Virus record (IMG/VR): IMGVR_UViG_3300045988_149282
Span: 32,001 to 96,000 of that record
Direction: 5' to 3' (one strand)
Origin: a virus
Lineage: Duplodnaviria > Heunggongvirae > Uroviricota > Caudoviricetes
Length of the DNA stretch: 64,000 nucleotides
The notes below the pieces were generated by a model that worked only from the letters and a program-made list of their open reading frames with translations, did not search any database and had not been told where the DNA came from. Of the stretch, positions 9,953 through 61,718 are shown one piece after another. A program made the position numbers and the translations under genes. Position 1 is the stretch's first letter, and every line of letters starts with the position of its first letter.

Positions 9953-10042
9953 TTCAATTCGTATGTAAGTGCTTACCTACAATTAGTTTCTAATTTATGA
10001 TATAAATCTGCCATCCGATTTGACTTATTCATGGAGGAAGAC

Positions 10043-10366
10043 ATGTCAAACGAGATGGCAGGCGTGACGCCAGAGCAGGTGGAGCGCATTGCCGCAATTG
10101 TTGCGCGAGAAGTCGTAGGAAAATTAAGTAAGGAGCTTCGCGATGATATTGGCCAGGAGGTCAACGATCAGCTGCGAACCTACTTTGGCGATATGACTCC
10201 GGCGCAACATAGCATTCAGCATTCCAACCTGGACAAACTTCTTAATCGGCTCGACACGATTTCAAGCGGGTTCTTTGGAGGCATTATTTCCAAGATTACC
10301 TCGTTCCTGATCACCGTGCTGCTTTTGGGTTTGGCCGCTTATGGCGTGAAAAATGGACTGCAATAA
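10043..10366 (+). CDS. Holin-like small membrane protein
   Basis: GGAGGA ribosome-binding site before ATG 10043; about 107 aa with one C-terminal transmembrane helix; first gene of the lysis cassette. Function inferred from position. Confidence 0.4.
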   Translation: MSNEMAGVTPEQVERIAAIVAREVVGKLSKELRDDIGQEVNDQLRTYFGDMTPAQHSIQHSNLDKLLNRLDTISSGFFGGIISKITSFLITVLLLGLAAYGVKNGLQ

Positions 10367-10379
10367 CAGGAGAACAAGG

Positions 10380-11072
10380 ATGAGTACTCCAAGAGGCATT
10401 CGTAACAACAACCCTGGCAACCTGGATAAAGGGTCGCCGTGGCAAGGGTTAGTAAACAACCCGTCGGAACCGCGGTTCTGTACTTTTAAAGACCCCGTAT
10501 GGGGGATTCGAGCACTGACAGTAACGCTCATCACCTACCATGATAAGCGCCGTGCAAAAGATGGCTCCAGCATCGATACGATCCGCGAAGTCATCGAGCG
10601 TTGGGCGCCGCCACACGAAAACAACACCGCCGCCTATATCAATGAGGTTTCTAAAGCCGTTGGCGTGACGCCGGACATGATCATCGATCTGCATGACTAC
10701 AATACTATGCGGCCGCTGGTGGAGGCGATTATTCGTCATGAGAACGGTCGTGGCCCTTTGAAAACACTCAACAGCTGGTATTCGGCCGAAGTTATTGACG
10801 AAGGTATGCGTCGCGCCGGCGTCGTTAAACCGGTAACTGCAGTGAAAGCCGTACCTGTCACGAAAGAAACTGCAGGCGCAACGGTGACTGCAGGTATCGG
10901 TATTGCGCAGCTGGCGGACGTAATGCCGCAGATCTCCGTTGCGATGGATAAGGCCCAGGGACATATTACCAGCGGGGATACCGTTCGCATTATCTTCGGT
11001 ATTGCGACCATTGTTGTCGCCGGCTTTATTGCCTGGTCGCAAGTTCGTAAGCATCAGGCAGGAGTGGTGTAA
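10380..11072 (+). CDS. Putative endolysin/cell-wall hydrolase with C-terminal membrane anchor
   Basis: AGGAGA ribosome-binding site then ATG 10380; N-terminal RNNNPGN motif region; hydrophobic C-terminal tail; sits between the holin-like gene and the spanin pair. Catalytic family not recognised. Confidence 0.4.
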   Translation: MSTPRGIRNNNPGNLDKGSPWQGLVNNPSEPRFCTFKDPVWGIRALTVTLITYHDKRRAKDGSSIDTIREVIERWAPPHENNTAAYINEVSKAVGVTPDMIIDLHDYNTMRPLVEAIIRHENGRGPLKTLNSWYSAEVIDEGMRRAGVVKPVTAVKAVPVTKETAGATVTAGIGIAQLADVMPQISVAMDKAQGHITSGDTVRIIFGIATIVVAGFIAWSQVRKHQAGVV

Positions 11073-11074
11073 CC

Positions 11075-11326
11075 ATGAACGGCAGCCTGCTTTCAAAGGT
11101 CAAATCGACCATCATGACTTTGGCTGCCGTCTTCTCTGTGCTCGTTGGGGCGTACACCTGGGGTGGACGTGCTGCCCGGCGGGCCATGGAAGAAAAGGCG
11201 CAGAGAGAAACCAACAAACGGCTTCAAGGCACAGTGGATGTGAAAAATGAGACGATTAATGAAGTCAGGACTAAGGATGCTTCTGCCGTTCATCGCGAGC
11301 TTCGCGATAAGTGGATGCGTGATTAA
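11075..11326 (+). CDS. i-spanin-like (Rz-like) protein
   Basis: ATG 2 nt after upstream stop; N-terminal transmembrane helix followed by a charged coiled-coil-like segment. Confidence 0.5.
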   Translation: MNGSLLSKVKSTIMTLAAVFSVLVGAYTWGGRAARRAMEEKAQRETNKRLQGTVDVKNETINEVRTKDASAVHRELRDKWMRD

Positions 11327-11474
11327 ACCCCAGACCGTGGGCGTACAATTCTGCGATGGGGCTAACCCTATCTACATCAGCAAGGACGACGCCCTGACAG
11401 AAGAAACTGAGAGGGAAATCCTGATCCACAACACGCTGGGTGAGCGAATCTGTGATTGGGGGAAAGGTACATAA
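11247..11474 (+). CDS. o-spanin-like (Rz1-like) lipoprotein, overlapping the i-spanin gene in another frame
   Basis: Signal peptide with lipobox AISGC; starts inside and extends beyond the i-spanin frame (overlapped spanin architecture). Confidence 0.5.
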   Translation: MRRLMKSGLRMLLPFIASFAISGCVIKPQTVGVQFCDGANPIYISKDDALTEETEREILIHNTLGERICDWGKGT

Positions 11475-11486
11475 GGAACTGACGTA

Positions 11487-11525
11487 AGATGCGCTTGCGT
11501 TGATGTGAGGCGCATCTGTTTCTTC
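11487..11525 (+). terminator. Hairpin plus T-rich tract after lysis cassette
   Basis: AGATGCGC ... GCGCATCT stem followed by GTTTCTTCT. Confidence 0.45.
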
Positions 11526-11715
11526 TATCTGTAATCGAGTAAATGCCGTCATCCAAGTTCACCGAACTTGATTATTCTTCACCGAACTTCACTCAAGGTA
11601 ATCTTGAATCATCCTGCTTAATGATGTAGATTTAACCAACAGCTGACGATGTCGTCAGCCGTTAGACCTGAAAAGGTGCCGCAATGACACTTGTGTTAAC
11701 GGCTAAGGTGGATAT

Positions 11716-12135
11716 ATGCTAAATTATCATGACAATACGCGTTCTATGCAGACGATCCGCACCAATACTGCGGTTATCGACAGCTTTCCTATGCGTATTC
11801 ACAACAGTGAAGACGCAGTAGAAGTGCGACGTATGTTGTGCCGTGAATCAGCTAACCGCCAGCACTTCATCGTCACTTTTAAGAGCGATGTGGCGCGTGC
11901 CGAAAAGATCTCTAATTCTACGTCACTGGTTAAACCGTTGGCCGAGGTTGTCACTAACGGTAAACGAACCTCTTTTGTTTTAGATGTTGCTGAACAATAT
12001 CCTGACTTGAAGTGTTTAGATCGTGATATTTCTTCACGAATCAAACAAGTTGTAGAGTCTTTTATGAAGAAATTCTGTAAAATCGATGATATGGAACCAT
12101 CAACGGCACAGAATACTTCATGGCACCATCTCTAA
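11716..12135 (+). CDS. Hypothetical protein (139 aa)
   Basis: GGTGGA ribosome-binding site 6 nt before ATG; no recognisable motif. Confidence 0.6.
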   Translation: MLNYHDNTRSMQTIRTNTAVIDSFPMRIHNSEDAVEVRRMLCRESANRQHFIVTFKSDVARAEKISNSTSLVKPLAEVVTNGKRTSFVLDVAEQYPDLKCLDRDISSRIKQVVESFMKKFCKIDDMEPSTAQNTSWHHL

Positions 12136-12893
12136 TTGGTCAGGCGAACAGATTAATCCCTGAAATAGAAGACTACAGCAAGGTCTTGTCTGAAATGCCG
12201 AGAGCGACGAGAATTATCGCTCTCGGTGAGTTCTATTTTATCTCCCGAGGTTTCGATCTAATTCGATTTACCGAATACGAGCTTGTTGATTCGGCCTATG
12301 AACGCTGTATTGTTGGCGAGTGTCTTGAGTCATGTGATCCTGATTACCAAGAGCAGGAAGTTAAGCGACTCAAACGTGCTGGTTACACACCTCTTGAGAT
12401 AGGAGCAGAAATTGAATCCTACAAGTTGCATGTGGGGCAGCCAGTCCAAACAGTCTTCCGCGTGGCCTACTGCGAGTTTCCAATCAAGGATAAATCTGGA
12501 GTAAAAGTCAGCGCCAAGCAGATTAGAGGGGTTTTTACTCATGCTGATTATATGGGATTAGGCATCGCAAGTTTTGCTTACCTTTATCTCGTAGATAAGT
12601 ATCAGTACTTGGTTTGCGATACGTTACAGACGGTAAAAGGCGCAACTCTTTGGGCTGTGAGTATGCGCAAACATGGACTGGTCGAAATTTACGATACGAA
12701 GAACGAAAATTTTATAGAGGAATTGGGTGAGGATGCCTGTGGCGTAAGTGGTTTTATTCCGTGGGATATCGGTAAGTCTGACGGAGGCCAGATGCGAAGA
12801 CGTGAAGAGTGGGGGACTAATAAAATCAATCTCACCCCAGGTGCTTGTACTCATATAGTGAACATTCTGAGTAAACGATCTATGAATCAATAA
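12120..12893 (+). CDS. Hypothetical protein, possible GNAT-like acetyltransferase fold in C-terminal half
   Basis: Overlaps upstream gene by 16 nt (operon-like). Segment DYMGLGIASFAYLYLV...ATLWAVSMRKHG resembles GNAT motif A/B by eye only. Start uncertain (alternative ATG 12195). Confidence 0.5.
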   Translation: MAPSLIGQANRLIPEIEDYSKVLSEMPRATRIIALGEFYFISRGFDLIRFTEYELVDSAYERCIVGECLESCDPDYQEQEVKRLKRAGYTPLEIGAEIESYKLHVGQPVQTVFRVAYCEFPIKDKSGVKVSAKQIRGVFTHADYMGLGIASFAYLYLVDKYQYLVCDTLQTVKGATLWAVSMRKHGLVEIYDTKNENFIEELGEDACGVSGFIPWDIGKSDGGQMRRREEWGTNKINLTPGACTHIVNILSKRSMNQ

Positions 12894-12915
12894 ACCCGCT
12901 ACGGCGGGTTTTTTG
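12893..12915 (+). terminator. Rho-independent terminator
   Basis: CCCGC-tacg-GCGGG hairpin followed by TTTTTT. Confidence 0.7.
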
Positions 12916-12993
12916 TTATTAAGCCCACCTATGTACCTATCATTAAACCTTTACACCGCAGCCGTAGGCATTTAGGCTATATCACATATAAGA

Positions 12994-14121: not shown

Positions 14122-14889
14122 TTATGCCGCGCTAACACTATGTTCAGTCCTAACCACCCCAACCTTCACAAAAGGGCTACCGTAGCTTGGTGGCTTCTTG
14201 ATTAATTTGCCTACATACAGTTTTCTAATATGCTCATCGGCTATTCTGCCAACAAATTCATAACGTTTTGTGTCGGGGCCAAGAGCTATATCCCTTGTAA
14301 AGTACTGCTGAGAACCGGCTTTGACCCAGCATTCAATCTGATAAACTTCCATTATCAGCCCACCATATGTAGCGTAGGCATATTTGAGATTCTCGTCTCT
14401 TGGAACCTTTGCCCATACGCCACGCGTAGCTTCATATAATGCCAGAGCGGACATTCCTGACTTGTAGGTGCTGTTTAGCAGGAAGGCAAGACCGGCGTGC
14501 TCAGGAGCAATTTCAGTTTCCTCTTGCAGCACTAAGTGATGGTAGGCGTCCAGTGATATTCTGCCCATCATGGAACCACTTCCTCGTACCTTATTCGTAA
14601 GCTCTCCGACCCCCATAAGGTCGATGCATGTCGCCTCAACAAGTTTGGCTGTGGTTTCATCCATACCATGACGAAGTATATCTATGCCTAATTTTTTATT
14701 AGCCAAAAGTTCTTTGATCCGCATGGATTTGGGAGAGTCATCGGGATACTTGATGTGATCGAGACAACGAGTCGATTTGCCTTTTCCTATGTAAAACGGT
14801 CTTTTCATCTTGTCTTCTGTATCATAGAGACAGTAAACATAGTATTTAGCCTTATCCAATGATCTCGCGTATACCGATAAATCGTCCAT
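14122..14889 (-). CDS. GIY-YIG-like nuclease domain protein (homing-endonuclease-like or defence-type nuclease)
   Basis: N-terminal YVYCLYD...PFYIGKGKSTR matches the GIY-(10)-YIG-R signature; about 160 aa C-terminal domain of unknown type; antisense to flanking operons. Confidence 0.55.
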   Translation of the reverse strand: MDDLSVYARSLDKAKYYVYCLYDTEDKMKRPFYIGKGKSTRCLDHIKYPDDSPKSMRIKELLANKKLGIDILRHGMDETTAKLVEATCIDLMGVGELTNKVRGSGSMMGRISLDAYHHLVLQEETEIAPEHAGLAFLLNSTYKSGMSALALYEATRGVWAKVPRDENLKYAYATYGGLIMEVYQIECWVKAGSQQYFTRDIALGPDTKRYEFVGRIADEHIRKLYVGKLIKKPPSYGSPFVKVGVVRTEHSVSAA

Positions 14890-15000: not shown

Positions 15001-15055
15001 CCTGCTTCTGTATATATAAATAATAAGTAACTTATTAAATATATACGGAAGCAGG
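15001..15055. repeat. 55-bp composite palindromic element, copy 1 (CCTGCTTCTGTATATAT ... ATATATACGGAAGCAGG)
   Basis: About 17-bp arms around an AT-rich centre containing ATAAGTAACTTAT; a near-identical copy lies at about 60132-60188. Confidence 0.6.
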
Positions 15056-15171
15056 TCTTTTAAAAGACACCACCAGAACAACTCCCTTCCGTTTCCACTT
15101 CCAAAAACTGCCACCAGTCGCTATCATCCGCTCATTGTGATAAGTAAGTAACTACCTACCAGGTGAGCCAC

Positions 15172-18559: not shown

Positions 18560-18634
18560 CAATCACCTTTAAAATAAGTAGATGATTACTTATCTTTCTG
18601 TGAGAATACTTTCATCTGTTAGCTAGGAGTTGGT

Positions 18635-19417: not shown

Positions 19418-19472
19418 TCTCTCCGCGCGTCGTTTTTTACGCAAATAACGATAGGTAAGTACAAGATTATTT

Positions 19473-22085: not shown

Positions 22086-22863
22086 AAACATCATGATAAG
22101 TATTTACTTACTTATCTTTTATGTATAAGATGACTTTGTTTTCGTTGAGACGCGACTGTTTGAACTTAAATACAAGTGCAAACGAAGAAGTCTATCTGGC
22201 AGTAGCCTAATAAGCCAAACACCAGCGAGGTCAGTTTCCAGCCTCGTTACCGAAATGGGACACACTGAGCGAGTGTGATTGCAGAACGCAGGAGGGAACA
22301 TTCATGTTCCCTCCGATGAAGTAACAGAATGGGCGGTTGGTATATTTTCAACTCCATATGACTCCCGGATTCTTAGCCTCTGACCGCCCATCCTGTTACG
22401 TCATTTTGTTCAATTATGTCGTTTATACTGGGTTAAAAAGCGGCGACGTAGCCCGGCTGGTATGGTTAGCCAGCACACAACGTTGAGGCCATTACATTTT
22501 TATCAATTCTAAGGTTCTATTCACAGAGATACCGGCGAGCGTTGATATGTAACATGTTGGGCAAACATTCAATCGGAGTAGTGGCCTCAACGTTGTGAAG
22601 ACAGGATTGTTGTGTAGGTTTAACCACTGTTGCCATTGGTGCCTGTTTTCACAACAAATGATTCCATACATCACATTGTATAAATTACAAAGTAGGTGCT
22701 GTCCTCAGAAACATCATCTACTTAAAGATTTTGCCTTCTACTATTGAGCGAAGTCGAAAGCGTCTGGCACTAACGAAAAGTGCAAGTAGCGGTGCGTTTC
22801 CTGGCAGAAACTAAACCGTCGCGATTGGCACTGTTGAGTAATAAATACTGGCAGTGCTGAATT

Positions 22864-22938
22864 GATGGTGTAGCTCAGCGGTAGAGCAGTTGGCTGTTAA
22901 CCAACTGGTCGGTGGTTCGAATCCACCCACCATCGCCA
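22864..22938 (+). tRNA. tRNA-Asn (anticodon GTT)
   Basis: Manual cloverleaf: acceptor GATGGTG/CACCATC, D-arm GCTC-AGCGGTA-GAGC, anticodon loop CTGTTAA, T-arm GGTGG-TTCGAAT-CCACC, encoded CCA. Confidence 0.85.
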
Positions 22939-22943
22939 ATTTA

Positions 22944-23030
22944 GGGGAGTTAGTCCGTAGAGGTAGCGGTGTAGACTGTAAATCTACTGTCATGGCGACT
23001 CGGGTGGTTCGACTCCATCACTCCCCACCA
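22944..23030 (+). tRNA. tRNA-Tyr (anticodon GTA), long variable arm
   Basis: Acceptor GGGGAGT/ACTCCCC, anticodon stem-loop GTAGA-CTGTAAA-TCTAC, long variable arm, T-loop TTCGACT, encoded CCA. Confidence 0.8.
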
Positions 23031-23034
23031 AATT

Positions 23035-23110
23035 GCCGGTTTAGCTCAGTTGGTAGAGCGCCTGCCTTGTAAGCAGGATGTCAGCGGTTCGAGTCCGTTA
23101 ACCGGCACCA
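23035..23110 (+). tRNA. tRNA-Thr (anticodon TGT)
   Basis: Acceptor GCCGGTT/AACCGGC, D-arm GCTC-AGTTGGTA-GAGC, anticodon loop CTTGTAA, T-loop TTCGAGT, encoded CCA. Confidence 0.8.
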
Positions 23111-23404
23111 ACATAATATTGAGAACATTGGCGTAACGGGTTCATATCCCAATTTATGAATATAATGTTGCGTTGCAGCGTGACAACCAGTGTTCTCAAC
23201 ATTGTGGTGAATGCACAGGCTGATGTGCGACGTAGAAGCAAGCGGATGAACTGCCTGAAGGCCGCTAACGTAGGCAATGCCGGAGATCAGCACCGGCCAT
23301 CACAATTTGGCTCTCTTGCAACAGCATAACGCTGAAATACGTCCAACCTGGTGCGGTCTGATCACCCGCCGTTAGCTCCACGAAACGGAGCACACAACAC
23401 AATT

Positions 23405-23491
23405 GGAGAGTAGGGAGCATGGTGCTCAAGCGGTCTTGAAAACCGTCCCATTGTGCAAACGATGATGGTTCGATTCCATTACTCTCCGCCA
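23405..23491 (+). tRNA. tRNA-Ser (anticodon TGA), long variable arm
   Basis: Acceptor GGAGAGT/ACTCTCC, anticodon stem-loop GCGGT-CTTGAAA-ACCGT, long variable arm, T-arm GATGG-TTCGATT-CCATT, encoded CCA. Confidence 0.7.
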
Positions 23492-23784: not shown

Positions 23785-24339
23785 ATGAAGAAGTGCCATC
23801 TCAATATTTTCGCATCTCTAATAATTGCGTTAACACTAACAGGGTGTAACGAATCTGAAATAGATGAATTAACGTTAATAGGCAAAGATAAAAGTGAACT
23901 TGAACAAAATTATAAAGCCCAATTCAAGAAGCTAACACAAAATGTTGAAGTGTTTATTCTTCAAGATAAAAATAGTCCGACTGAAAAAGAACCGCATACG
24001 AATGGCAACCTGATCGACGGAAAAGTCGAAATGTCATTAACCAGTAATGTTGGTAAGTATACATTCATCCAGATAAGTGAAATGCTGACAAAGGAGTACG
24101 GAAAACCCGTTGCTACAAAAGATCGTGTTTTTAACAGAGAAGCAGTATCTGGCATGGACTGTATTGAAACTAAAACTTGTGGAGCTGGTAAATATTATGA
24201 AATCTTTCGAGGGAAGGATAGATTGATTATGGTGTCAAACGGTGCCGGTCTTTTACACGAAAAGGAAGGTGTAACACTACTCACCATCACCGATAAACAA
24301 TTTAAATTTTCTCGTTTAGAAGAAGATAAAATAAAATAA
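23785..24339 (+). CDS. Lipoprotein (184 aa) in AT-rich islet; candidate superinfection-exclusion/lysogenic-conversion factor
   Basis: Signal peptide with lipobox LTGC; GGAG ribosome-binding site; coding DNA looks AT-rich by eye; flanked by about 29-bp direct repeats. Confidence 0.6.
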   Translation: MKKCHLNIFASLIIALTLTGCNESEIDELTLIGKDKSELEQNYKAQFKKLTQNVEVFILQDKNSPTEKEPHTNGNLIDGKVEMSLTSNVGKYTFIQISEMLTKEYGKPVATKDRVFNREAVSGMDCIETKTCGAGKYYEIFRGKDRLIMVSNGAGLLHEKEGVTLLTITDKQFKFSRLEEDKIK

Positions 24340-24344
24340 TGACA

Positions 24345-24372
24345 GGGGCGTATACGCCCCTATCTAAAATTT
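24345..24372 (+). terminator. Hairpin after lipoprotein gene
   Basis: GGGGCG-tata-CGCCCC followed by an A/T-rich tract. Confidence 0.45.
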
Positions 24373-24590
24373 GACATTAAACATATATTGCATCTGGTAT
24401 CAGCAATTTTTGTGCGCTATGTAAGTCCTTACCTGCAATCAGTCTCATAAATATCGGATTTTACGTAGCGTACCATCGTTACAGCAAGCATCAAATTATT
24501 CACTGACATTTATGCGCTGAAAACAGCGTTACTTACCGTAAAATAACAATTTTCAGCGCAAAATTTAAAGAGGCTTCGAATCTGCACAAC

Positions 24591-25886
24591 CTATTGTGCG
24601 TACTCGCCCAATTTTAATGTTTCACGCTTATATTCATCAACTATCTCACATGATTTAATATAGATATGGCACAATAGGTTATCACTATCATCATTATCGT
24701 TTATTGCCATAAGTGCCAACTTTTTCTCATATTCATCGATCGCATCACTCAACTGATCACCTGTAATTACATCTGACTCACTCGAGAAATATAACTGCCC
24801 AAGATTTACCGCATTTTTTCCAGTTTTTCTTTGCTCTATGTAATTTTTAATCATATCCTTCACATCCTTTTCACTACTCAGTATTTCACTTTCGAAATGG
24901 ACATGCTCTGAAATCGACGCGACTCTGCAACCGATCAAACGATGAATATAGTCATCAATAGACGTAACACTATCATTAGCTTTTTTTAGTGCTTCATCAA
25001 AAATGCTCTTTACCTCATTTGGCAAATTTTTAAAATAATCATCAATTAAACCAGATAATGGTGTTTGGTAGTTCATTAATACCGATGAAGCAACTTGCGG
25101 ACGACGAGCCACCCAGATTTCTTTGACTTCAACTTGAGAATAATATTCCTTAATCACGTTCCAAAAGTATTTTAACATCTTGGTTTTAAATATTTTATCA
25201 AATCTATCCTTTATAAATAGCTCTACTTCAGGCATGCTTGAATAAGCATCATCAAAGAATATTTCATCTTTGAAAAAATCATATTTATTTAATAAAGCAT
25301 ACAGTTTTTTTGAATCCAGCGGTTCACGAGAATCGATGTCCAATCCAAAAACTGCAATAACCAACTTCATTTGCGGTGGTATTTTTCCACTCAATTGAAT
25401 AATATATTCCATTTTTTCATCAAAACAATTTCCATCTATGTAAAATCGGTTATCTACATAGACTAATATATTGGTAATATGTTTTATGTACTGAATAACC
25501 TCATGCTTTCTTACCAATGGATAAAAAAACGAATGCATTTCATTTTTATTAAATTGTTTTTTTGTCTGTTCAATGATTGGTATGACATTATTGTACAACT
25601 CATCATGCTGATTTAATAAAGTGTCAAACCATTCTTTGAAAGAATTTTTTCTCATCTCAATCAATGAATCGGTAGTTATCCTAACGGCCTCCAGTGCTGC
25701 CTTTGCACTTTTTCTTGCTTCATAGGCGTTCCACGCTGTTGCACAAAAAGCCGCTGTCGTTATAAAACTACTCAATACAGCAATTTGGTCTGTAACCTTC
25801 CAATCTTGAAATGGCTCAAGTAGTAAACCTAAAAACAAAATTATTATGGAAAACATTAGAATTGCAACAGAAATAAAAACAGGCAT
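24591..25886 (-). CDS. Membrane-anchored protein (about 431 aa, two N-terminal transmembrane helices plus large cytoplasmic domain) of unknown function; candidate abortive-infection/exclusion protein
   Basis: Antisense ORF in AT-rich DNA; GAGAG ribosome-binding site supports start at M12 of the ORF-track product (25886); two hydrophobic helices within the first 60 aa; no catalytic motif recognised. Confidence 0.55.
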   Translation of the reverse strand: MPVFISVAILMFSIIILFLGLLLEPFQDWKVTDQIAVLSSFITTAAFCATAWNAYEARKSAKAALEAVRITTDSLIEMRKNSFKEWFDTLLNQHDELYNNVIPIIEQTKKQFNKNEMHSFFYPLVRKHEVIQYIKHITNILVYVDNRFYIDGNCFDEKMEYIIQLSGKIPPQMKLVIAVFGLDIDSREPLDSKKLYALLNKYDFFKDEIFFDDAYSSMPEVELFIKDRFDKIFKTKMLKYFWNVIKEYYSQVEVKEIWVARRPQVASSVLMNYQTPLSGLIDDYFKNLPNEVKSIFDEALKKANDSVTSIDDYIHRLIGCRVASISEHVHFESEILSSEKDVKDMIKNYIEQRKTGKNAVNLGQLYFSSESDVITGDQLSDAIDEYEKKLALMAINDNDDSDNLLCHIYIKSCEIVDEYKRETLKLGEYAQ

Positions 25887-25981
25887 GTATGCTCTCGTAC
25901 TTACCATTGTTAGTTGCATTAAATATTAACTAAATTAAGTTGTGATTAACAGGCAAGTTTACGATGTATTGCAGACATTAA

Positions 25982-26002
25982 ATAGGTTTTTACTTACCTA
26001 TC
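25982..26002. promoter_or_regulatory. ATAGGT-N-TACTTACCTAT palindromic motif (class-2 dispersed family)
   Basis: Upstream region shared by the divergent 431-aa gene and the glutaredoxin gene. Confidence 0.4.
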
Positions 26003-27999: not shown

Positions 28000-28030
28000 T
28001 GTTACAACCTTTGCGCGTTCAATTCTCTCT

Positions 28031-28044
28031 GGTAAGTGCTTACC
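28031..28044. promoter_or_regulatory. GGTAAGTGCTTACC palindrome upstream of the XRE regulator gene (candidate operator)
   Basis: Perfect 14-bp palindrome about 35 bp upstream of the regulator start; near-identical cores at 9965-9976 and 49932-49952. Confidence 0.45.
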
Positions 28045-28249
28045 GATATTACATCAAAGGTTAGGGTTGTAAAGCTATTATCATTTTTTCGATAGGCACT
28101 TAAAAGACCGGTTAAAGGCCATTGCACGGAGAAAAATTGGCCCAAAACAGGTAAGAAAATTAACTTGCATATGATATGAATGTATTCAGTATTGATATAA
28201 ATTTTAGTAGTATTCCTTACCATAGTATAAGTTAGAATGGATTGATTGA

Positions 28250-28462
28250 ATGAACACCACTATTTCCAGCCTAATCGCTCTTGAGATCGGACACGTACAG
28301 AAATTAGCTGATGAGTGTGTAGCTGACATCCTCACCGATCTACCGAATGAGCAGATTCAGGTTGGTGTGAATGACACAACTGGCTTTATATTCGAACTTA
28401 ACAACAAACGCTTCACGCTTCTCAATATCGGCTCCGGGTCTTTAGCCGTCAGAATCTGTTAA
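28250..28462 (+). CDS. Hypothetical small protein (70 aa), divergent from the XRE regulator
   Basis: ORF only; position resembles a cro-like partner but no helix-turn-helix recognised. Confidence 0.3.
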   Translation: MNTTISSLIALEIGHVQKLADECVADILTDLPNEQIQVGVNDTTGFIFELNNKRFTLLNIGSGSLAVRIC

Positions 28463-30669: not shown

Positions 30670-30764
30670 ACAAAACAGCCTTAATGATAAGTTACTACTT
30701 ACGATAGATGATGATATATTTATATAAGAAGTTGAACGCTCATTAGAGAACAAAGGAAAAACGC

Positions 30765-32000: not shown

Positions 32001-32002
32001 TC

Positions 32003-36261: not shown

Positions 36262-36290
36262 GATAGATAATAAGTAAGTACTGATCTATC
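36262..36290. promoter_or_regulatory. GATAGATAATAAGTAAGTACTGATCTATC palindromic motif (class-2 family)
   Basis: Outer GATAGAT/ATCTATC arms around a TAAGTAAGTAC core. Confidence 0.4.
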
Positions 36291-37462: not shown

Positions 37463-38407
37463 GTGAATTATCTCTTCGTAGATGGCAATAGCCTGGGTTA
37501 TTACCACCAACAATCTGACAAATTGCACAACGGCGAAATGGAAGTACAGGCTGCTTTCGGCTTTGTTAAGAACGTCCGTCGTTATGCCTCCATCCTCCAT
37601 GCCCGACCTATGATTCTTTGGGATGGATTTAGTGACAAGCGTCGCGACTTTTACCCGGACTACAAAGCAAATCGCGACGACGATCCTGATATGAAAAAGA
37701 TGAAGGAAGGCTTTGCTATCCAGAAGCCATACATCCTCAAAATGATGACCGCGCTTGGAGTTACCCAACTCATTGCAAAAGATGCAGAAGCGGATGATCT
37801 GGCCGGGCTGCTGGTAGCCAGCATTGCACCGCAGCCAATCGTTGAACACATCTATCTGTTAACAGGCGATAGCGACTGGCTTCAGTTAGTTCGCGAAAAC
37901 GTAAGCTGGGTAAGCCTGCGCGAAGACGCCAAAAACAAGCAGGTTAATTTTGAGCAATTTGCGGAGCTGACAGGATTCGCTACTCCTCGCGCATTTTTGG
38001 AAGCAAAAGCATTACAAGGCGATAAATCGGACAACATTAGCGGTGTTGGTGGCATTGGTGCTGGCGGTGCGAAAGAGCTGCTGCATGAATGGGGAAGTGT
38101 CGCAACGATGGTACGCGGCATCAACGACGGCTCAATCGTGGTTGACAAAGGACGCCATAAGACCGCCTTCAACAAACTAGCGAAGAATGCCTTCAACGAG
38201 AAAACAGGCTGTCGAATGCTCGAAGCGTTCAAGAGAAACATCACGCTAATGAACCTGATTGAGACGAAGTTTCCGCCTACCGAAATCGAAACAATCAAAG
38301 GCAATCGTGACGTGAAAGCATTCGAGCAACTGTGCTACGAGCTGAATTTCCGTTCGTTCCTTGAAGACCTTGAAGTGTTTGTTCTTCCATTCGAAAGGTA
38401 TTGCTAA
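37463..38407 (+). CDS. 5'-3' exonuclease/flap endonuclease (FEN family)
   Basis: GGAAGGA ribosome-binding site then GTG 37463; N-terminal YLFVDGNSLGYY and acidic metal-binding motifs (DGFSDKRRDFYPDYKANRD, LTGDSDWLQL). Confidence 0.75.
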   Translation: MNYLFVDGNSLGYYHQQSDKLHNGEMEVQAAFGFVKNVRRYASILHARPMILWDGFSDKRRDFYPDYKANRDDDPDMKKMKEGFAIQKPYILKMMTALGVTQLIAKDAEADDLAGLLVASIAPQPIVEHIYLLTGDSDWLQLVRENVSWVSLREDAKNKQVNFEQFAELTGFATPRAFLEAKALQGDKSDNISGVGGIGAGGAKELLHEWGSVATMVRGINDGSIVVDKGRHKTAFNKLAKNAFNEKTGCRMLEAFKRNITLMNLIETKFPPTEIETIKGNRDVKAFEQLCYELNFRSFLEDLEVFVLPFERYC

Positions 38408-39753: not shown

Positions 39754-39779
39754 AAGGCGTCCACAGGACGCCTTTTTTA
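39754..39779 (+). terminator. Rho-independent terminator
   Basis: AAGGCGTCC-aca-GGACGCCTT followed by TTTTTAT. Confidence 0.85.
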
Positions 39780-39792
39780 TCTCTTGAAAATA

Positions 39793-39809
39793 TATAAGTA
39801 CTTACTTAT
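39793..39809. promoter_or_regulatory. TATAAGTACTTACTTAT palindromic motif (class-2 family)
   Basis: About 35 bp upstream of the small membrane protein gene. Confidence 0.4.
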
Positions 39810-39841
39810 TATTTTCGCATAACAACCACATAGGAAAACAC

Positions 39842-41724: not shown

Positions 41725-41763
41725 GTTTACAGTAAAGTTTATATAAGTTAGTATCTACCTATC

Positions 41764-42534: not shown

Positions 42535-43067
42535 ACCGCTGACAGCATACACAATCAACTACCGCTGATAGCATATCGAGAGTCTATCTCACCGCTCACA
42601 GCATACTTTACTCGATTTTTTACCGCTGACAGCATACTTAAGAAATTGCATGAATAATGTGTCCCGGTATGGGTATAACCAGAACAAAATTACCGCTGGC
42701 AGCATACGAATGTCTGACATATACCATTAATTACCGCTGATAGCATATCCAAACAAAAATTCCTCAATAAAACACCGCTGACAGCATACGTTCTATCAGG
42801 GAGTAGCAGGCAATAAATGCCTTTCACTACAAGCAATCAGCGCAATAGCAATAGAATGTTAGTGAGCGCAAACCTATATGGAATGCACTCTTCGAGGTTA
42901 GTAACCACTGGGGAGGTATGACAGAGCATTGAGTGGTGATAGATGATTTACCGCTCACAGCATACGTTCATCTCACTATACCGCTGGTAGCATATCTTTA
43001 ACCGTTCACAGCATACTTTTCAGAAAAATAGCCGCTGATAGCATACATTTCACCGCTGACAGCATAT
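42535..43067. repeat. Iteron array, about 12 copies of ACCGCTGACAGCATAC (control locus downstream of repA)
   Basis: Copies start at about 42535, 42561, 42591, 42622, 42692, 42733, 42774, 42950, 42980, 43001, 43030, 43052, with point variants (GATAGCATAT, CTCACAGC, CTGGCAGC). Confidence 0.8.
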
Positions 43068-45127: not shown

Positions 45128-45249
45128 CCCTCCAGATCGTATATTGGCGTAGATAGAATCTACGCCTCCTCAAAATAGCTCTCATAGCGTTCTACAGTGA
45201 TCCTGTCTTATTTTTAGTCATACAGACAAGCAAAGTTGCTCCACAATAA

Positions 45250-45269
45250 ATAGGTATATACTTACTTAT
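45250..45269. promoter_or_regulatory. ATAGGTATATACTTACTTAT palindromic motif (class-2 family)
   Basis: Upstream of the SbcD-like gene. Confidence 0.4.
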
Positions 45270-45381
45270 AAATTTTGTATATTAAGACGCTCGTTTCATT
45301 CCTAACATACCGTTATGCATAGTTGTTTACCTTCTCATTGCTCTTAAAATTTGTATCAAAATAACCACAAAGGAAAAACAC

Positions 45382-49931: not shown

Positions 49932-49952
49932 TGATAGGTAAGTGCTTATCTA
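49932..49952. promoter_or_regulatory. GATAGGTAAGTGCTTATCTAT palindromic motif upstream of nrdA (candidate operator)
   Basis: Shares the GGTAAGTGCTTA core with the sites at 28031 and 9965. Confidence 0.45.
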
Positions 49953-49998
49953 TTAACATGGGCCACTATATTTAGTGGCCCTCTTTATTTGGTGATAC

Positions 49999-53639: not shown

Positions 53640-54509
53640 ATGAACTTTACCAAACTGACTGACCACCTGAAACTTGCCACCGATCGACTCATTGGATTTA
53701 AGCCAGAACCATATGAGTTGCATGAAGGCCATGGTGTAGCCACTGAAAGTATTTACAAGATGGTCGATCAGTTTCATGAACTCTTCCAGCATCCGAGACG
53801 CGTTATGCCGACACCAGCGCTGCTTCGTCTCCGTGCAAGCCTGATTCATGAAGAAGCTGTAGTGGAAGGTATTCCAGCCGCAATGAATGGGGATATTGAG
53901 CAACTGCTGGATGCAATGGCCGACTTTTTATACGTTGGTGTTGGTACGATGGTCGCCATCAAAGGTGGTATTTCTACCGGCATGACCTATTACACGCAGG
54001 AACAGAGCATTGATCGCTTTATGCAGACAATTTTTGTGCCTGGTAACACTGTTTTCGATGATATGGCAATGCCATTTCAGGAAGCTCGTGAGGCGTCATG
54101 TATGCTCGAAGAGCTGGCAGATAAACTTGAGAACAAGACTGTTAAGGATTCTGAGCTGATTCAGGAACTGCGCCGTGTAATGAACAAAATCTATGTGGCG
54201 TGCATGATGACCTATCGACTGGCTGATTTCCTCGGTATCAATGTTGTCGAGCTGGTTGGCGAAATTCATCGGTCCAACATGACAAAATTATGGCCTGCAG
54301 ATGCCGAAGAGCGTCGCCATGCTGTGGCCAACTGCAAATACGACTCTTCTGACCTGGGATTTCGCCATGCTGATGGCACCGATAAGATGATCGGTTTTCG
54401 AATTTCCGATGGAAAGATTCTGAAGTCTCCAACCTATAGTGATGTCGATTTATCCTCCTTTGTTGAGCAAGCTAAAGCCTCAGCAATGTACGGAATGATC
54501 AAAAAATAA
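53640..54509 (+). CDS. Putative nucleotide pyrophosphohydrolase (MazG/HisE-like all-alpha domain) protein
   Basis: EE-x-E ... D ... E-x(2)-D-x(3)-DFLYV pattern (LIHEEAVVEGIP...DIEQLLDAMADFLYV) by eye; 289 aa with extra domains. Confidence 0.4.
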   Translation: MNFTKLTDHLKLATDRLIGFKPEPYELHEGHGVATESIYKMVDQFHELFQHPRRVMPTPALLRLRASLIHEEAVVEGIPAAMNGDIEQLLDAMADFLYVGVGTMVAIKGGISTGMTYYTQEQSIDRFMQTIFVPGNTVFDDMAMPFQEAREASCMLEELADKLENKTVKDSELIQELRRVMNKIYVACMMTYRLADFLGINVVELVGEIHRSNMTKLWPADAEERRHAVANCKYDSSDLGFRHADGTDKMIGFRISDGKILKSPTYSDVDLSSFVEQAKASAMYGMIKK

Positions 54510-54578
54510 TTGTAGGTAGTTATCTATCTGTGTATATTGCATTTGCGCGTTAAATTTCTGAAACAACTATTCGTTTTT

Positions 54579-54604
54579 GGTGGCCTATGGCCACCATTTT
54601 TTTA
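54579..54604 (+). terminator. Rho-independent terminator
   Basis: GGTGGCC-tat-GGCCACC followed by ATTTTTTTTAT. Confidence 0.85.
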
Positions 54605-54649
54605 TCTATCTGGTCTTGTTCTCTCAATAAATGTAAACTCACACAATGA

Positions 54650-54666
54650 ATAAGTGGTTACTTATC
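54650..54666. promoter_or_regulatory. ATAAGT-GGTT-ACTTAT palindromic motif just upstream of thyA
   Basis: Class-2 family site overlapping the ORF-track 5' extension of thyA. Confidence 0.4.
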
Positions 54667-58522: not shown

Positions 58523-59332
58523 ATGAGTTCGGTTGAAAATGTAATGACAAATGATGATCTGGACGAGCTGACAGCCATGTTGCAATCACTTGATGAACCA
58601 GTAAAAAAAGCTGCACAGGTTGAAAATACTGATGATATTGACGATCTGTTGCTCGGCCTAGATGCTGGCGTAGCCATGAGTTCTGATGATGTTGCCGAAG
58701 AACTGTTCAATGAAGAAAAAGCAGGTGATTTCAGCTCTGCTTTAAATGAGTTGGAGTTAGCGCATGAGCCTATAAACGTAATTAACGCTGAAAGTGTTGA
58801 AGCTGCCGAAAACGAGCCAGAACAATTGGGATTTATTGAAGTTGAAGAGTGTGTTGAGGTTAATGATGAATTAAAAGTTCAACAGTCAAATGATAGCAAT
58901 ACAAATAAAAAAGCTCGTACTGCAAGAGGTCCTCGTTTTACTTTAAGTGATAAAGATGATTCGTTTTTCAATAAAGCGGGCTTAGAAAAAGATATTTTCT
59001 TAGACGCTTACGATAACGCGCCTGTCAAAGCAAAGGATAAGATATTAAACCTTCTTAATTGGTTTAGCGGAGGTCCAGATATTAGTGTTTACACGGTAAT
59101 TTCCATGAGACACCTTCTCACAGAAAAGAAGGCAACAAGTAATAGTATTAAGATTGCTTTAATGAGCAATCCAGAAAAACCGTATCCGCTTAATACTGCG
59201 TCAACTCAGGCTGGGCAAATGATGGCTGTATTTCCAGCGACAGGAATTGCCGTTAGAGACGGTGGAAATCTAACATTGAACGAAGAATCACCGATCGTTA
59301 AGAAGTTTGTCGCGGAGTACACTATTGGATGA
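58523..59332 (+). CDS. Hypothetical protein with strongly acidic N-terminal half and basic C-terminal half; candidate DNA-mimic/anti-restriction protein
   Basis: AAGGAG ribosome-binding site; first ~120 aa rich in D/E; directly upstream of the Dam-like methyltransferase. Confidence 0.55.
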   Translation: MSSVENVMTNDDLDELTAMLQSLDEPVKKAAQVENTDDIDDLLLGLDAGVAMSSDDVAEELFNEEKAGDFSSALNELELAHEPINVINAESVEAAENEPEQLGFIEVEECVEVNDELKVQQSNDSNTNKKARTARGPRFTLSDKDDSFFNKAGLEKDIFLDAYDNAPVKAKDKILNLLNWFSGGPDISVYTVISMRHLLTEKKATSNSIKIALMSNPEKPYPLNTASTQAGQMMAVFPATGIAVRDGGNLTLNEESPIVKKFVAEYTIG

Positions 59333-59484
59333 CGTTCCCCTACTTAAAATAAAGCCCATAGAGAGCTTTATAGTACTGGGTAAGCCAATCACATACCCAG
59401 CACCACAAAAACGCGCCAGAGAGCTTCTCGTTTGCATTTCTGGCGTGTTTTATTTGATTGCCAGACATAAAATCAAATGCAAAA

Positions 59485-59504
59485 ATAGGTATATACTTAC
59501 CTAT
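59485..59504. promoter_or_regulatory. ATAGGTATATACTTACCTAT palindromic motif upstream of the methyltransferase gene
   Basis: Perfect 7-bp arms ATAGGTA/TACCTAT; class-2 family. Confidence 0.45.
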
Positions 59505-59515
59505 CGAGAAAGAAG

Positions 59516-60109
59516 ATGATTGCAGCCGAAAAAATCAAACAGCGAAAGCGCGACAACTCTCTTCGTGACCTCTGGAGAACACCTGACTGGCTGTTTTCTG
59601 CCATTCAACGTTATCTTGGAGTGACATTTGATGTTGACGTTGCCTGCAACAAGGACAATGCAAAGCTGCCTAATTTCATAGGCGTTGAGCGTGATGCTTT
59701 GAAATCTGAATGGGGACAGCCAGGTACAATTGCCTTCCTCAATCCACCCTACTCCAAAATCTACCCCTGGATTGATGCGGCTATACGTGAGCAGGCTCGC
59801 GGAGTTACAACAGTGATGCTAATTCCTCAATCCCTCGATACAAAGTGGTATGAGCGTGCAACAGAGTGTGCGAATGAGACGATTATTCTGTCTGGTGGCC
59901 GCGTAGCGTTTGTCGAGCCTGACGTAAATCTGGGTCAGGTAGAAGTAAACATCAACCCAGGTGGCAGTATGCTCGTTGTTTTTCGAGGATTCTGTCAGGA
60001 CGCTGGGCACTCTATAAGCAAGATCCCTTTGGACGTCATGAAAAGTCTGGGAGGGTATGATCCTGCGAATGTGATCAGGAAAAAAAGACCATCAAAGAAG
60101 GCTGCTTAG
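59516..60109 (+). CDS. DNA N6-adenine methyltransferase (phage Dam-like)
   Basis: Catalytic NPPY motif (AFLNPPYS); N-terminal RTPDWLFSAI segment; 197 aa. Confidence 0.75.
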   Translation: MIAAEKIKQRKRDNSLRDLWRTPDWLFSAIQRYLGVTFDVDVACNKDNAKLPNFIGVERDALKSEWGQPGTIAFLNPPYSKIYPWIDAAIREQARGVTTVMLIPQSLDTKWYERATECANETIILSGGRVAFVEPDVNLGQVEVNINPGGSMLVVFRGFCQDAGHSISKIPLDVMKSLGGYDPANVIRKKRPSKKAA

Positions 60110-60131
60110 TTTGTTCTGGTGTCTGTAATTA

Positions 60132-60188
60132 GCCTGCTTCTGTATATATAAATAACTACATATTAATTATTAATATACGGAAGAAGGC
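60132..60188. repeat. 55-bp composite palindromic element, copy 2 (GCCTGCTTCTGTATATAT ... ATATACGGAAGAAGGC)
   Basis: Near-identical to the copy at 15001-15055; downstream of the methyltransferase gene. Confidence 0.6.
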
Positions 60189-60294
60189 TGTTTTGTATCA
60201 GAGACTCCAGACCTGAACATCACTACAGAATCCACTAGAACCCCTTCCCAGACGCTTTAAAATCGATTTTATGAACCACTTTAAGGAAACCAAC

Positions 60295-60525
60295 ATGTCA
60301 TACCCGACTAATGTCGTTGCGCTCGTAGAGAGCGATTTTCTGGCCCAGGCTCGTGAAATGATGAAAGATCGTGAGCAGGCTTTCAACTTGTACGAATGGG
60401 CAATTAAGTGCTTGCATCTTGGCGAGCATCGCGAACTTGTTGAACAGCTTTTAGGTGAGTTGATCAATGAGGTGTTTGCCTTGAATGTTCAACTACATGG
60501 TAGAGAAAATAATCAATCACAATGA
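60295..60525 (+). CDS. Hypothetical small protein (76 aa)
   Basis: AAGGAAACC ribosome-binding site then ATG 60295 (ORF-track start 60271 lies upstream in frame). Confidence 0.45.
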   Translation: MSYPTNVVALVESDFLAQAREMMKDREQAFNLYEWAIKCLHLGEHRELVEQLLGELINEVFALNVQLHGRENNQSQ

Positions 60526-60539
60526 TAGATAAGTACAAA

Positions 60540-61045
60540 CTATTCATAAAGTGAATTGTAAGTGCTAAGATCTGATAGTTTCCAGTCGTAGACTGGAGAC
60601 TCGACCTGATGGGTGGGGGTAAGCGTCACTGGCGTCAGGTTTAAAAAAGCTCACTACCAGCGTAGAACTGGTGCCGTTTAGGTGTCGGGGAAGGGGGAAC
60701 CAAAGTGAGCAGAGACAAGGGTCACTTTATGATTGTCGAGTCTGGGGTGTTTCGAGAGGTTGAATCCAGTACTCCCCTTCATAAAGTGTGGGAAGATCTC
60801 GGTTCTGGGGTGCTGTCATCCATAACTTCCCAAGTCTAAGCTGGCAGTAGACTTAGACCATAACTTTTCAGGTTATGAAACGACCAGGTTGGTGAGAGAT
60901 TTTTATACTCACCTCCCTGGGAGAGTATTACCTGAAAAGACAACCTCTCACTTCGTTCGAGGTGAACTTCACTCACTTCGTTCGTTCAGTTCAGGTTTAT
61001 AAAAACCTGTTCTGGGAAGTAATTTGTTTATTTTAATAATTATTA
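60540..61045. other. About 500-bp non-coding region with multiple hairpins and direct repeats; candidate structured RNA, packaging site or lytic origin
   Basis: No credible ORF; hairpins CCAGTC-gtaga-GACTGG and CAGGTTT-ataaa-AACCTG; direct repeat CTCACTTCGTTCG twice; inverted GTCTAAG/CTTAGAC. Confidence 0.4.
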
Positions 61046-61070
61046 ACACGCACGCGTGTGCGCACGCGCG
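61046..61070. repeat. 25-nt perfect alternating purine-pyrimidine tract (ACACGCACGCGTGTGCGCACGCGCG)
   Basis: Read directly; contains the CACGCGTG palindrome; GC-rich in an otherwise AT-rich promoter region before the RNase H gene. Confidence 0.7.
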
Positions 61071-61108
61071 AGGAAAAAATCGGCGCGGCGCTTGATTCAG
61101 GAGTTTAT

Positions 61109-61699
61109 ATGACGACGAAGACACCAGCCCGATCGCAAGCAAAAACTCGCAAAAAAGCCAAAAACAAAAATTCTCCCCGCACCAATCCCACAACGCCTGT
61201 CGTAGAGTTCAATCCCCAGCTCAAAACCGTGAAAATCTTTAGTGATGGCTCTTGCCTTAAAAATCCGGGTGGCCCGGGCGGTTACGGTATCGTTCTCCAG
61301 TATCGTGGTGAGGAACGCGAATTCTCAGATGGTTTTCATAGCACCACCAATAACCGCATGGAGATGATGGGGGCACTTATCGGGCTGGAGCGTTTGAAAT
61401 ATCCATGCAACGTTATTTTGCACTCTGATAGCCAGTATCTGAAAAACGGCATGACACAGTGGATGAAATGGTGGAAACGCAATGGATGGATGACTTCTGA
61501 CAAAAAACCGGTAAAGAATGTTGATCTGTGGAAGCGTCTGGATGAGGCCGCAAGTCGACATAATGTTCGCTGGAAGTGGGTTAAAGGTCACGCCGGGCAT
61601 CGTGAAAATGAAATATGTGATCGACTCGCGAAGATCGCAGCTTTTTCAGCAGCAGATATGCCTCACAAGAAAGATATTGGTTTTGTTTATAACAAATAG
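61109..61699 (+). CDS. rnhA: Ribonuclease HI with basic N-terminal extension
   Basis: CAGGAG ribosome-binding site then ATG 61109; motifs [39 protein letters not shown]. Confidence 0.8.
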
Positions 61700-61718
61700 T
61701 AAGTAAGTGTTTACCTAT
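61696..61718. promoter_or_regulatory. ATAGTAAGTAAGTGTTTACCTAT palindromic motif (class-2 family)
   Basis: Immediately after the RNase H stop. Confidence 0.4.

Follow-up and report, generated by a model that had tools for sequence, protein, structure and literature searches.

The intergenic DNA of an SSU5-like phage-plasmid of Escherichia coli carries a dispersed family of 22-bp palindromes which, at a probability of about 0.6, we take to be the operators of a dimeric helix-turn-helix (HTH) repressor encoded by the element itself, most likely an XRE-family protein of 128 amino acids (aa). The DNA examined, hereafter the window, is the whole stretch of 64,000 nucleotides (nt) at positions 32,001 to 96,000 of IMG/VR record IMGVR_UViG_3300045988_149282. 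The palindrome family is real, lineage-specific, conserved, and positioned at predicted promoters and gene boundaries, it shows no pairing constraint, and its sequence variant tracks the recognition helix of the XRE protein; binding by this protein, repression, and a roadblock role at some sites are what we infer from the sequence comparisons. An operator family of this kind, dispersed as in the plasmid prophage P1 and serving the XRE protein, had been proposed in the initial annotation of the window, and all of the indirect, comparative tests that were run support the proposal.

The window shares 97-99% identity with the E. coli phage-plasmids PhiR41_1, CMS-2020a, and Cyrano (pLF82) and about 80% with Salmonella phage SSU5, and it belongs to an SSU5-like phage-plasmid of E. 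coli. Matches to it were found in more than 800 plasmid records, from Klebsiella, Escherichia, Enterobacter, Yersinia (including pMT1 of Y. pestis), Salmonella, and others. Nearly all genes of the window lie on the plus strand. Gene names were taken from the deposited annotation of Cyrano and SSU5, and expression values, which are gene-level only, from the published RNA sequencing of the LF82 lysogen (PMC9928086, S1 Table).

Occurrence and distribution of the palindrome

Motif-like sequence was present at all 18 of the positions at which the initial annotation had read a palindrome, and their alignment gave a 22-bp consensus in which the half GATArGTAAGT is followed directly by the half ACTTAyCTATC, with weaker flanks that are A-rich and T-rich. 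A further site, at 24416, was added to these. The window holds 47 segments with at most 7 mismatches to the 20-bp core ATAGGTAAGTACTTACCTAT, against a mean of 8.0 in Markov shuffles, and 19 good sites once overlapping registers are collapsed (Table 1). To avoid circularity, scanning was done with an independent matrix from a Klebsiella relative. With this matrix the non-coding DNA of the window (7.2 kb, GC content 39.6%) contained 16 sites of at least 12 bits, whereas composition-matched Markov sequence averaged 0.17 and never exceeded 2 in 200 trials, so that the motif is far more frequent than expected for AT-rich intergenic DNA. Non-coding DNA makes up roughly 10% of the window and contains at least 17 of 21 sites (binomial p = 2e-14). 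One detail of the earlier description did not hold: the exact core GGTAAGTGCTTA, said to occur before the XRE gene, the lysis cassette, and nrdA, was found twice, at 28031 upstream of the XRE gene and at 49937 upstream of nrdA, while the lysis-cassette site at 9965 reads TGTAAGTGCTTA. The three gene contexts themselves were named correctly.

When 2.9 million viral contigs were scanned for the exact pattern, 99 stretches matched, and 95 of these align over at least half of their length to SSU5-like genomes; two of the others are only partly alignable and two are without similarity to these genomes. The motif is specific to the SSU5-like phage lineage. A site for a host factor, including one suggested by a resemblance to the NarL heptamer, was discarded because exact matches are nearly confined to SSU5-like elements and because the motif changes by lineage. 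Full or near-full genomes contained 26-30 sites in Cyrano, 25-28 in SSU5 (about 0 in shuffles), 30 in Klebsiella pJN2-26, 24 in Cronobacter JZ38 (0-1 in shuffles), and 27 in a Providencia plasmid (0-3 in shuffles); for the distant relatives the motif was derived by iterative matrix refinement, exact palindromic k-mer counting being too insensitive. The sites stand as conserved islands in diverged spacers, at orthologous positions in the E. coli (Cyrano) and Salmonella (SSU5) relatives. In Cyrano, 24 of 26 are intergenic and are spread over the structural, lysis, replication, recombination, and nucleotide-metabolism blocks, with hardly any in the accessory region at 85-105 kb.

The XRE protein and its recognition helix

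By its predicted fold the XRE protein is an HTH protein of the Cro/CI type. The AlphaFold2 model has pLDDT values of 82-88 over residues 11-70, with helices at residues 28-34 and 41-47, the second of which is the recognition helix, and in a Foldseek search the HTH domain of the model superposed on C.BclI, C.AhdI, HigA, P22 c2, 434 Cro, and SinR at TM-scores of 0.6-0.78 relative to the target and at weak E-values of 0.008 or higher. A sequence search of the PDB gave no match for this protein. Homologues occur in 865 plasmid records, compared with 826-828 for the backbone, and the counts per genus are near-identical. In the LF82 lysogen the gene has an expression value of 96, the median being 9.8, and the majority of genes that follow a motif site do not rise above background.

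The support for sequence-specific binding of the palindrome by this protein is their parallel variation. Helix 3 (GYKN(A/P)NNLSLIKSGK) is unchanged in elements from E. coli, Salmonella, Yersinia, Kluyvera, and Buttiauxella and is near-identical in Klebsiella pJN2-26 (GYKNPNILSLIKKGR); the elements sharing it also share the GTAAGT-type motif, though overall identity of the XRE protein drops to 56%. In Cronobacter JZ38, the helix reads GYENANNLSNIKTGR (LSNIKTGR) and the motif has the halves ATArGTAGnT and AnCTACCTAy, and in Providencia a helix reading GYSSHNNISMLKSGK (HNNISMLKSGK) accompanies the halves GTAnGTATTT and nnATACnTAC. The P0032 lineage of E. coli has the helix GYKYQNQVSFIKSGK (YQNQVSFIKSGK) and the motif GTATGTATGTATTTACTTAC (GTATGT/ATTTAC) at 7 sites in 20 kb. 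Its XRE protein is 80% identical to that of a Salmonella-type relative, and 7 of the 26 differences lie within residues 38-54. The backbone of the P0032 lineage is about 75% identical to the window, which is about the divergence of pJN2-26, yet pJN2-26 has retained helix and motif alike. In the adjacent 70-aa gene (hyp46) variation is diffuse and does not follow that of the motif. Across the lineages compared, the predicted recognition helix and the motif variant change together. A complete P0032 genome was sought in plasmid and E. coli collections, where nothing closer than 73-77% was found.

The XRE gene also appears to carry a copy of the motif on its own promoter. This minus-strand promoter is predicted as TTTACA-16-TAATAT (28073-28046), and the motif copy starts inside the -10 element and spans the predicted start site. 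In sequence, promoter and operator are invariant in five lineages (E. coli, Klebsiella, Salmonella-type, P0032-type, and Y. pestis), and the weak score of this copy is as expected for an autoregulatory operator. A larger inverted repeat at 28002-28072 (TTACAACCTTTG ... CAAAGGTT.GGGTTGTAA) is roughly concentric with it, one of its arms including the region of the ribosome-binding site (RBS) of the XRE gene.

No XRE homologue was found in SSU5, which keeps all of its motif sites. A Salmonella element in the plasmid state (L116) is 98.4-98.5% identical to SSU5 on both flanks of a 6.6-kb segment that is absent from SSU5 (at 42633-42639) and that encodes PhoH, glutaredoxin, a YafO toxin, an integrase, the XRE protein, and the 70-aa divergent gene. 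Judged by these alignments, SSU5 arose recently from a plasmid-state element through this 6.6-kb deletion, which probably explains its lytic behaviour. We had considered that the presence of the motif in a phage without the XRE gene might exclude this protein as the binder, but dropped the argument because SSU5 is 1.5% diverged, too recent for site decay. As a recent deletion, SSU5 says nothing either way through the sites that it retains, while the deletion itself fits a need for the XRE protein in the plasmid state.

Several observations weigh against the assignment of the palindrome to the XRE protein as a repressor. The Pfam match to HTH_19 (E = 7.8e-4) is below the curated cutoff. The covariation comprises four motif types only, with the P0032 lineage represented only by those 20 kb and 7 sites. 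The early rightward promoter region beside the XRE gene (28100-28250) holds half-sites only, with no strong full site, and CYRAN_34 and CYRAN_81 are expressed in the lysogen despite an upstream motif. The protein is also without an S24 cleavage domain. Cyrano is induced 39-fold by ciprofloxacin (PMC9928086), and given this SOS inducibility an antirepressor or some other step must link the SOS response to a repressor lacking self-cleavage. Lastly, the 119-aa partner of ParA (89) and the 92-aa CYRAN_117 (114) have expression values in the lysogen well over the median and similar to that of the XRE gene.

These last two proteins are candidates for a different binder, as would be an organiser or activator of the lytic phase, with the XRE gene merely one of the genes controlled. 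Both are conserved in all five genomes, SSU5 included, and their genes are active in the lysogen; repression of the XRE gene by another protein would be just as consistent with the motif copy at its promoter; and at the holin promoter the site is centred near -42.5, a typical activator position. We nevertheless consider a different binder unlikely. Sequence searches of Pfam, PHROGs, and the PDB detected no DNA-binding domain in either protein, and the region upstream of parA (12927-12945) has two tandem right half-sites (ACCTATGTACCTATCAT) and no full palindrome. Lysogen expression is at background or close to it for the ParB-domain genes, the gene of an 88-aa 'DNA-binding' protein, and an FljA-like gene. 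An activator is further disfavoured by the variable register of the motif relative to the -10 element, and any other binder leaves unexplained why substitutions cluster in the XRE recognition helix in step with the motif changes.

DNA site, promoter geometry, and expression

Were a hairpin under selection, G.U-compatible mismatches between the arms, read on the transcribed strand, should exceed A.C mismatches and the arms should covary. Among 107 distinct sites, arm mismatches were G.T in 110 cases and A.C in 108, and the arms covaried weakly. For perfect copies the folding energy is -7 to -8 kcal/mol, with z-scores between -3.5 and -6.3, while the conserved sites at 36269, 15139, and 41742, each of at least 23 bits, have no stable RNA fold (-2.4, -0.2, and 0 kcal/mol, respectively); the central bases that would form the loop are conserved, and an Rfam search gave no family match apart from tRNAs. 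Parity of the two mismatch classes, together with strong sites that do not fold, indicates that the element acts as two independently varying half-sites. The motif behaves as a dimer-binding DNA site and not as an RNA hairpin.

An RNA hairpin in polycistronic transcripts that controls processing, stability, or translation was rejected on these pair statistics and folding energies, and we regard it as highly improbable. It had some appeal in that many sites lie just before an RBS or just after a stop codon and in that a protein of the FljA family, which might bind such a hairpin, is conserved in the group; FljA of Salmonella binds the leader of the fliC mRNA. Against it stand also a copy at a minus-strand promoter that starts in the -10 element and spans the predicted start, the near-background expression of the FljA-like gene in the lysogen, and the Providencia plasmid, which keeps the motif family and in which no FljA homologue was detected. 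An intrinsic terminator was likewise rejected, the sequence 3' of the motif having no consistent T-run.

The distance from motif to start codon ranges from 0 to more than 700 nt and is 20 nt or less at 9 of the 26 Cyrano sites; with a distance so variable the motif is not a promoter element of fixed geometry. About 10 sites have a conserved -10 or extended -10 element at a constant offset, and at three of the sites (39789, 36269, and 49933) a -35/-10 pair flanks or overlaps the motif, all of these promoters being predicted from sequence. At 18573, 22095, 30686, 45249, 54645, and Cyrano 84619 an extended -10 (TGn with GAGAAT, TATAAG, AAGAAT, or CATAAT) follows about 8 nt after the motif, whose centre is then near -30.5, whereas at 39789, at 36269, and at a site within the portal gene, at its 3' end, the spacer is taken up by the motif, which also provides the start of the -10 element. 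Overall, site centres lie near -19.5, -23.5, -30.5, or -42.5 relative to conserved -10 elements. Such varied registers on promoter elements suit the operators of a repressor; the sites of activators hold a constant position. Elsewhere the motif runs over a stop codon, directly adjoins a start codon, or is followed by a GC-rich hairpin with a T-run.

These distances also make the alternative offered in the initial annotation, a promoter element for a phage-specific transcription factor, a poor fit, the spacing being fixed neither to the -10 element nor to start codons. The MotA box of phage T4 is asymmetric and sits at -30 with a fixed spacing to the -10 element; an analogy with it (TGCTTA near -30) was abandoned because the motif here is palindromic and its spacing varies, no search for MotA or AsiA homologues having been made. 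A shared late-promoter element, GATATAAAT, was dropped as well, with 15 matches against 17 expected and no enrichment. In the region 9001-64000 the classical -35/-10 pattern is rarer than in shuffles (21 vs 35.5, 18 vs 27.6, and 14 vs 31.5).

Gene-level expression changes at several motif junctions. In macrophages at 6 h (MB6), values step up by 2.5-3.6 log2 units exactly at the junctions of genes 11 and 12, 55 and 56, and 59 and 60, with a smaller rise of about 1.2 and then about 1.6 from gene 3 through 4 to 5, and these step-ups fit repressible promoters at the junctions. Drops of 0.7-4.3 log2 units, varying with the condition, occur across the junctions 34/35, 64/65, and 78/79, where the motif is present and no intrinsic terminator is predicted; they would fit a roadblock, the data being gene-level and other junctions combining motif and terminator. 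When motif junctions were tested for an overall step-up there was no tendency, both step-ups and step-downs occurring.

The macrophage step-ups would also suit a promoter cassette read by host RNA polymerase with no dedicated binder, in which TT plus the left end of the motif forms TTGATA and the right end plus AT forms TATCAT. The base two positions after the motif is T in 13 of 19 sites, giving TATCAT or TATCTT, and predicted promoters use the ends of the motif at nrdA, the gp32 gene, and the membrane-protein gene. We find this improbable, however, because a distance of only 14 bp between the ends is too short for a single promoter, and because conservation is no lower in the inner 10 bp, which vary by lineage, than at the ends, a pattern that a -10 or -35 role does not explain. 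Nor does a promoter account well for the 9 Cyrano sites so close to a start codon, or for a palindromic sequence in a genome where nearly all genes run one way.

Finally, dispersed sites on a plasmid prophage might serve as centromeres or as structural sites for a partition protein. Dispersed palindromic centromeres of this kind are known from N15, and the present element encodes a ParA and a pair of proteins with ParB domains. In the plasmid state, however, the genes of this pair are both expressed at background level, no full site is next to the parA operon, and the sites track promoters and gene boundaries, one of them overlapping the XRE promoter, so that a partition role seems very remote.

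Individual sites, proposed mode of control, and its meaning

Table 1. Copies of the palindrome in the window and the gene of the candidate repressor, with scores from the motif matrix.
Feature	Coordinates	Strand	Sequence	Context	Score (bits)
Site	9960..9981		CGTATGTAAGTGCTTACCTACA	upstream of holin/lysis cassette, ATG 10031	20.0
Site	15139..15160		GATAAGTAAGTAACTACCTACC	directly before RBS of CYRAN_31 homologue, ATG 15172	24.7
Site	18573..18594			upstream of CYRAN_34 homologue (18635)	21.1
Site	19450..19471			abuts ATG 19473 of CYRAN_35 homologue; no room for promoter	17.3
Site	22095..22116			after CYRAN_39 homologue; heads conserved non-coding stretch and tRNA cluster	27.3
Site	24416..24437			weaker, in low-GC island	15.0
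Site	25981..26002			upstream of glutaredoxin gene (26059; identity from Pfam)	24.9
XRE-family HTH protein, 128 aa	27613..27999	-		candidate repressor binding the motif
Site	28027..28048		CTCTGGTAAGTGCTTACCGATA	weak copy overlapping XRE gene promoter	12.5
Site	30686..30707			degenerate, upstream of CobS-like AAA gene (30765)	11.0
Site	36269..36290			upstream of gene for gp32-like single-stranded DNA-binding protein (36374)	24.6
Site	39789..39810			between terminator (39754-39774) and small membrane protein gene (39842)	25.9
Site	41742..41763			abuts ATG 41764 of CYRAN_60 homologue; identical in SSU5	23.4
Site	45249..45270			upstream of SbcD-like gene (45382)	25.1
Site	49933..49954		GATAGGTAAGTGCTTATCTATT	best site, upstream of nrdA (49999)	27.4
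Site	54507..54528			overlaps stop codon of MazG-like gene	15.0
Site	54645..54666			upstream of thyX; conserved TGTGAGGTT after it	19.2
Site	59484..59505			10 nt upstream of Dam methyltransferase ATG (59516); orthologues in 19 distinct sequences	27.4
Site	60524..60545			overlaps stop codon of CYRAN_80 homologue; orthologues SSU5 78708, Cyrano 78476	18.8
Site	61698..61719			overlaps stop codon of RNase H gene; orthologues SSU5 79903, Cyrano 79650	24.7

Several sites are conserved together with the promoter elements around them. The holin site, conserved in SSU5, Cyrano, and other relatives, has the extended -10 TGnTATAAA 17 nt downstream. At 18573 the extended -10 (TGn GAGAAT, 18599-18607) begins at +8, and TGTAAGAAT is found at the equivalent position in Cyrano and also follows the corresponding SSU5 site at 38177. 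The degenerate site at 30686 is orthologous to SSU5 45123 and is followed by TGnTATATT at +8 and then by the conserved stretch ATATATTTATATAAGA, while the site at 45249 and its adjoining extended -10, TTTTGTnATAnT, form a conserved island in a spacer that has otherwise diverged. The site at 36269 is inside the spacer of TAGATA-17-TATCAT, of which TATCAT is kept even in a distant locus (L098), and that at 39789 is in the spacer of the conserved promoter TTGAAA-17-TATTAT; macrophage expression rises by 3.6 log2 units at the junctions of both 39789 and 41742. Orthologous sites for 15139 exist in Cyrano and SSU5, and for 24416 none was found in the relatives. Lysogen expression falls by 2.4-4.3 log2 units across the junction at 19450. 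Just downstream of the site at 54507 there is a conserved TATATT and then a terminator (54578-54596).

The nrdA site, conserved in 18 distinct sequences, is inside TTGATA-17-TAACAT and is followed by a hairpin and T-run at 49960-49981. A GC-rich hairpin with a T-run 5-10 nt after the motif is found at nrdA (49954-49981) and at the major capsid, Tc1, and tail M genes of relatives, with MazG also in this group; at nrdA, transcription from TTGATA-17-TAACAT is predicted to start within the 5' arm of this hairpin. The site at 22095 has a -10 element, TATAAG, at +8 that is kept in SSU5, and right after these two a strongly conserved non-coding stretch begins (22120-23491) that leads to four tRNA genes (Asn, Tyr, Thr, and Ser, at 22864-23491); an Rfam scan of this stretch found no family except tRNAs.

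A second repeat family, of two copies, was noted at 15001-15055 and at about 60133-60187. Each copy is a long inverted repeat (CCTGCTTCTGTATATAT ... ATATATACGGAAGCAGG) whose centre is AT-rich, and after it the two have blocks of sequence in common over about 100 nt; in relatives the stem is kept by compensatory changes. The AT-rich centres (15015 and 60147) score weakly with the matrix of the palindrome and belong to this other element, which may be a terminator or a replication-related structure.

Other features of the window concern its gene content. The 2762-aa tail-fibre/host-specificity open reading frame (ORF) at 168-8456 is 89-92% identical to that of Klebsiella elements and is not matched by the E. 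coli relatives, pointing to a mosaic tail module. Just past the parA operon, at a position occupied by another gene in Cyrano, a minus-strand ORF (14122-14889) encodes a GIY-YIG nuclease domain and may represent a homing endonuclease. A low-GC island at 24000-26000 (33.8% GC against about 46%) contains a 442-aa minus-strand ORF (24591-25919), for which a Pfam search gave no match, as well as the isolated motif-like site at 24416, and is probably accessory cargo. Close homologues of FljA (Pfam Flag1_repress, E = 1e-80) occur in Cyrano (100780-101301), SSU5 (96897-97343), Klebsiella pJN2-26, and Cronobacter JZ38. FljA is the repressor of phase-1 flagellin, and through its homologue the phage-plasmid may tamper with flagellin expression in the host.

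On our preferred reading, that the palindrome is the operator of the XRE protein, about 20 sites in the window, and 26-30 per whole genome of this type, would have repressor bound to them in the plasmid (lysogenic) state. Bound repressor would occlude sigma-70-type promoters (-35, spacer, -10, or start) of replication, nucleotide-metabolism, lysis, and structural genes, and at sites directly before start codons or after stop codons it could stop read-through in the manner of a stoperator. The weaker copy on the promoter of the repressor gene would provide negative autoregulation, and loss of the repressor would release the whole gene set together.

A bolder version, which we put forward tentatively and hold to be rather doubtful, makes the operator more than a promoter switch: about half of the copies, those where no promoter fits, would be palindromic 'stoperators' without orientation, at which read-through is blocked while the element lives as a plasmid. 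At nrdA and at the major capsid and tail genes, the operator, its -10-like right end, and the terminator could then form one compact module, in which upstream read-through would be terminated while local transcripts, beginning inside the 5' arm of the terminator, would escape termination. Immunity specificity would in that case evolve by concerted change of about 25 sites and the recognition helix, as is suggested by the P0032, Cronobacter, and Providencia lineages.

Comparable systems are known. P1 is a plasmid prophage whose 283-aa C1 repressor has dispersed asymmetric 17-mer operators (ATTGCTCTAATAAATTT), including copies at its own gene. As in P1, many copies of one consensus are scattered here, at predicted promoters of diverse lytic functions, with a further copy at the promoter of the candidate repressor itself, but the copies form a 22-bp palindrome of unrelated sequence, and the candidate, a 128-aa protein with a Cro/CI-type HTH, is not of the C1 family by homology. 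Sites are also found here within the structural-gene block, whereas the late genes of P1 are reached indirectly through Lpa. The likeness to the cluster A mycobacteriophages (L5 and D29, with an operator and about 24 stoperators) lies in the number of related sites, about 25-30, in their location mostly in short intergenic gaps of early and late regions, in a consensus that varies between related phages, and in the drops of expression across some motif junctions that have no predicted terminator. D29 is a lytic mycobacteriophage in which a recent deletion removed the repressor while the stoperators were kept (PMC5712189), and SSU5 resembles it as a recent deletion that lacks the repressor candidate and keeps the sites. 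Mycobacteriophage stoperators are described in PMC9283540 as asymmetric 13-mers that are oriented with transcription and bound by a monomer; the sites here are symmetric in both halves and so without orientation, and an elongation block at them is a proposal. With the Cro/CI-type repressors (434, P22 c2, C-proteins, HigA, and SinR) the candidate shares an HTH fold with a recognition helix and a palindromic site, in which about 12 bp, roughly one helical turn, separate the centres of the half-site cores TAnGTA and TACnTA, but the classical members have one or a few operator clusters and not about 25 dispersed sites. The proposed system would work like those of P1 and L5 but is homologous to neither.

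A literature search found no description of the motif, of immunity in the SSU5 group, or of its silencing in the plasmid state. The style of control is already known from the C1 operators of P1 and the stoperators of mycobacteriophages. SSU5-like elements rank among the most common phage-plasmids of Enterobacteriaceae, and PMC9600943 reports that some of them bear resistance genes. A defined operator and a named candidate repressor would give a handle on their induction, immunity groups, and host range, and helix 3 together with the motif variant could predict which elements are hetero-immune. Loss of the candidate repressor would account for the lytic life of SSU5, and the system would add a second, independent Gram-negative example of the genome-wide repressor sites known from P1 and from mycobacteriophage L5.

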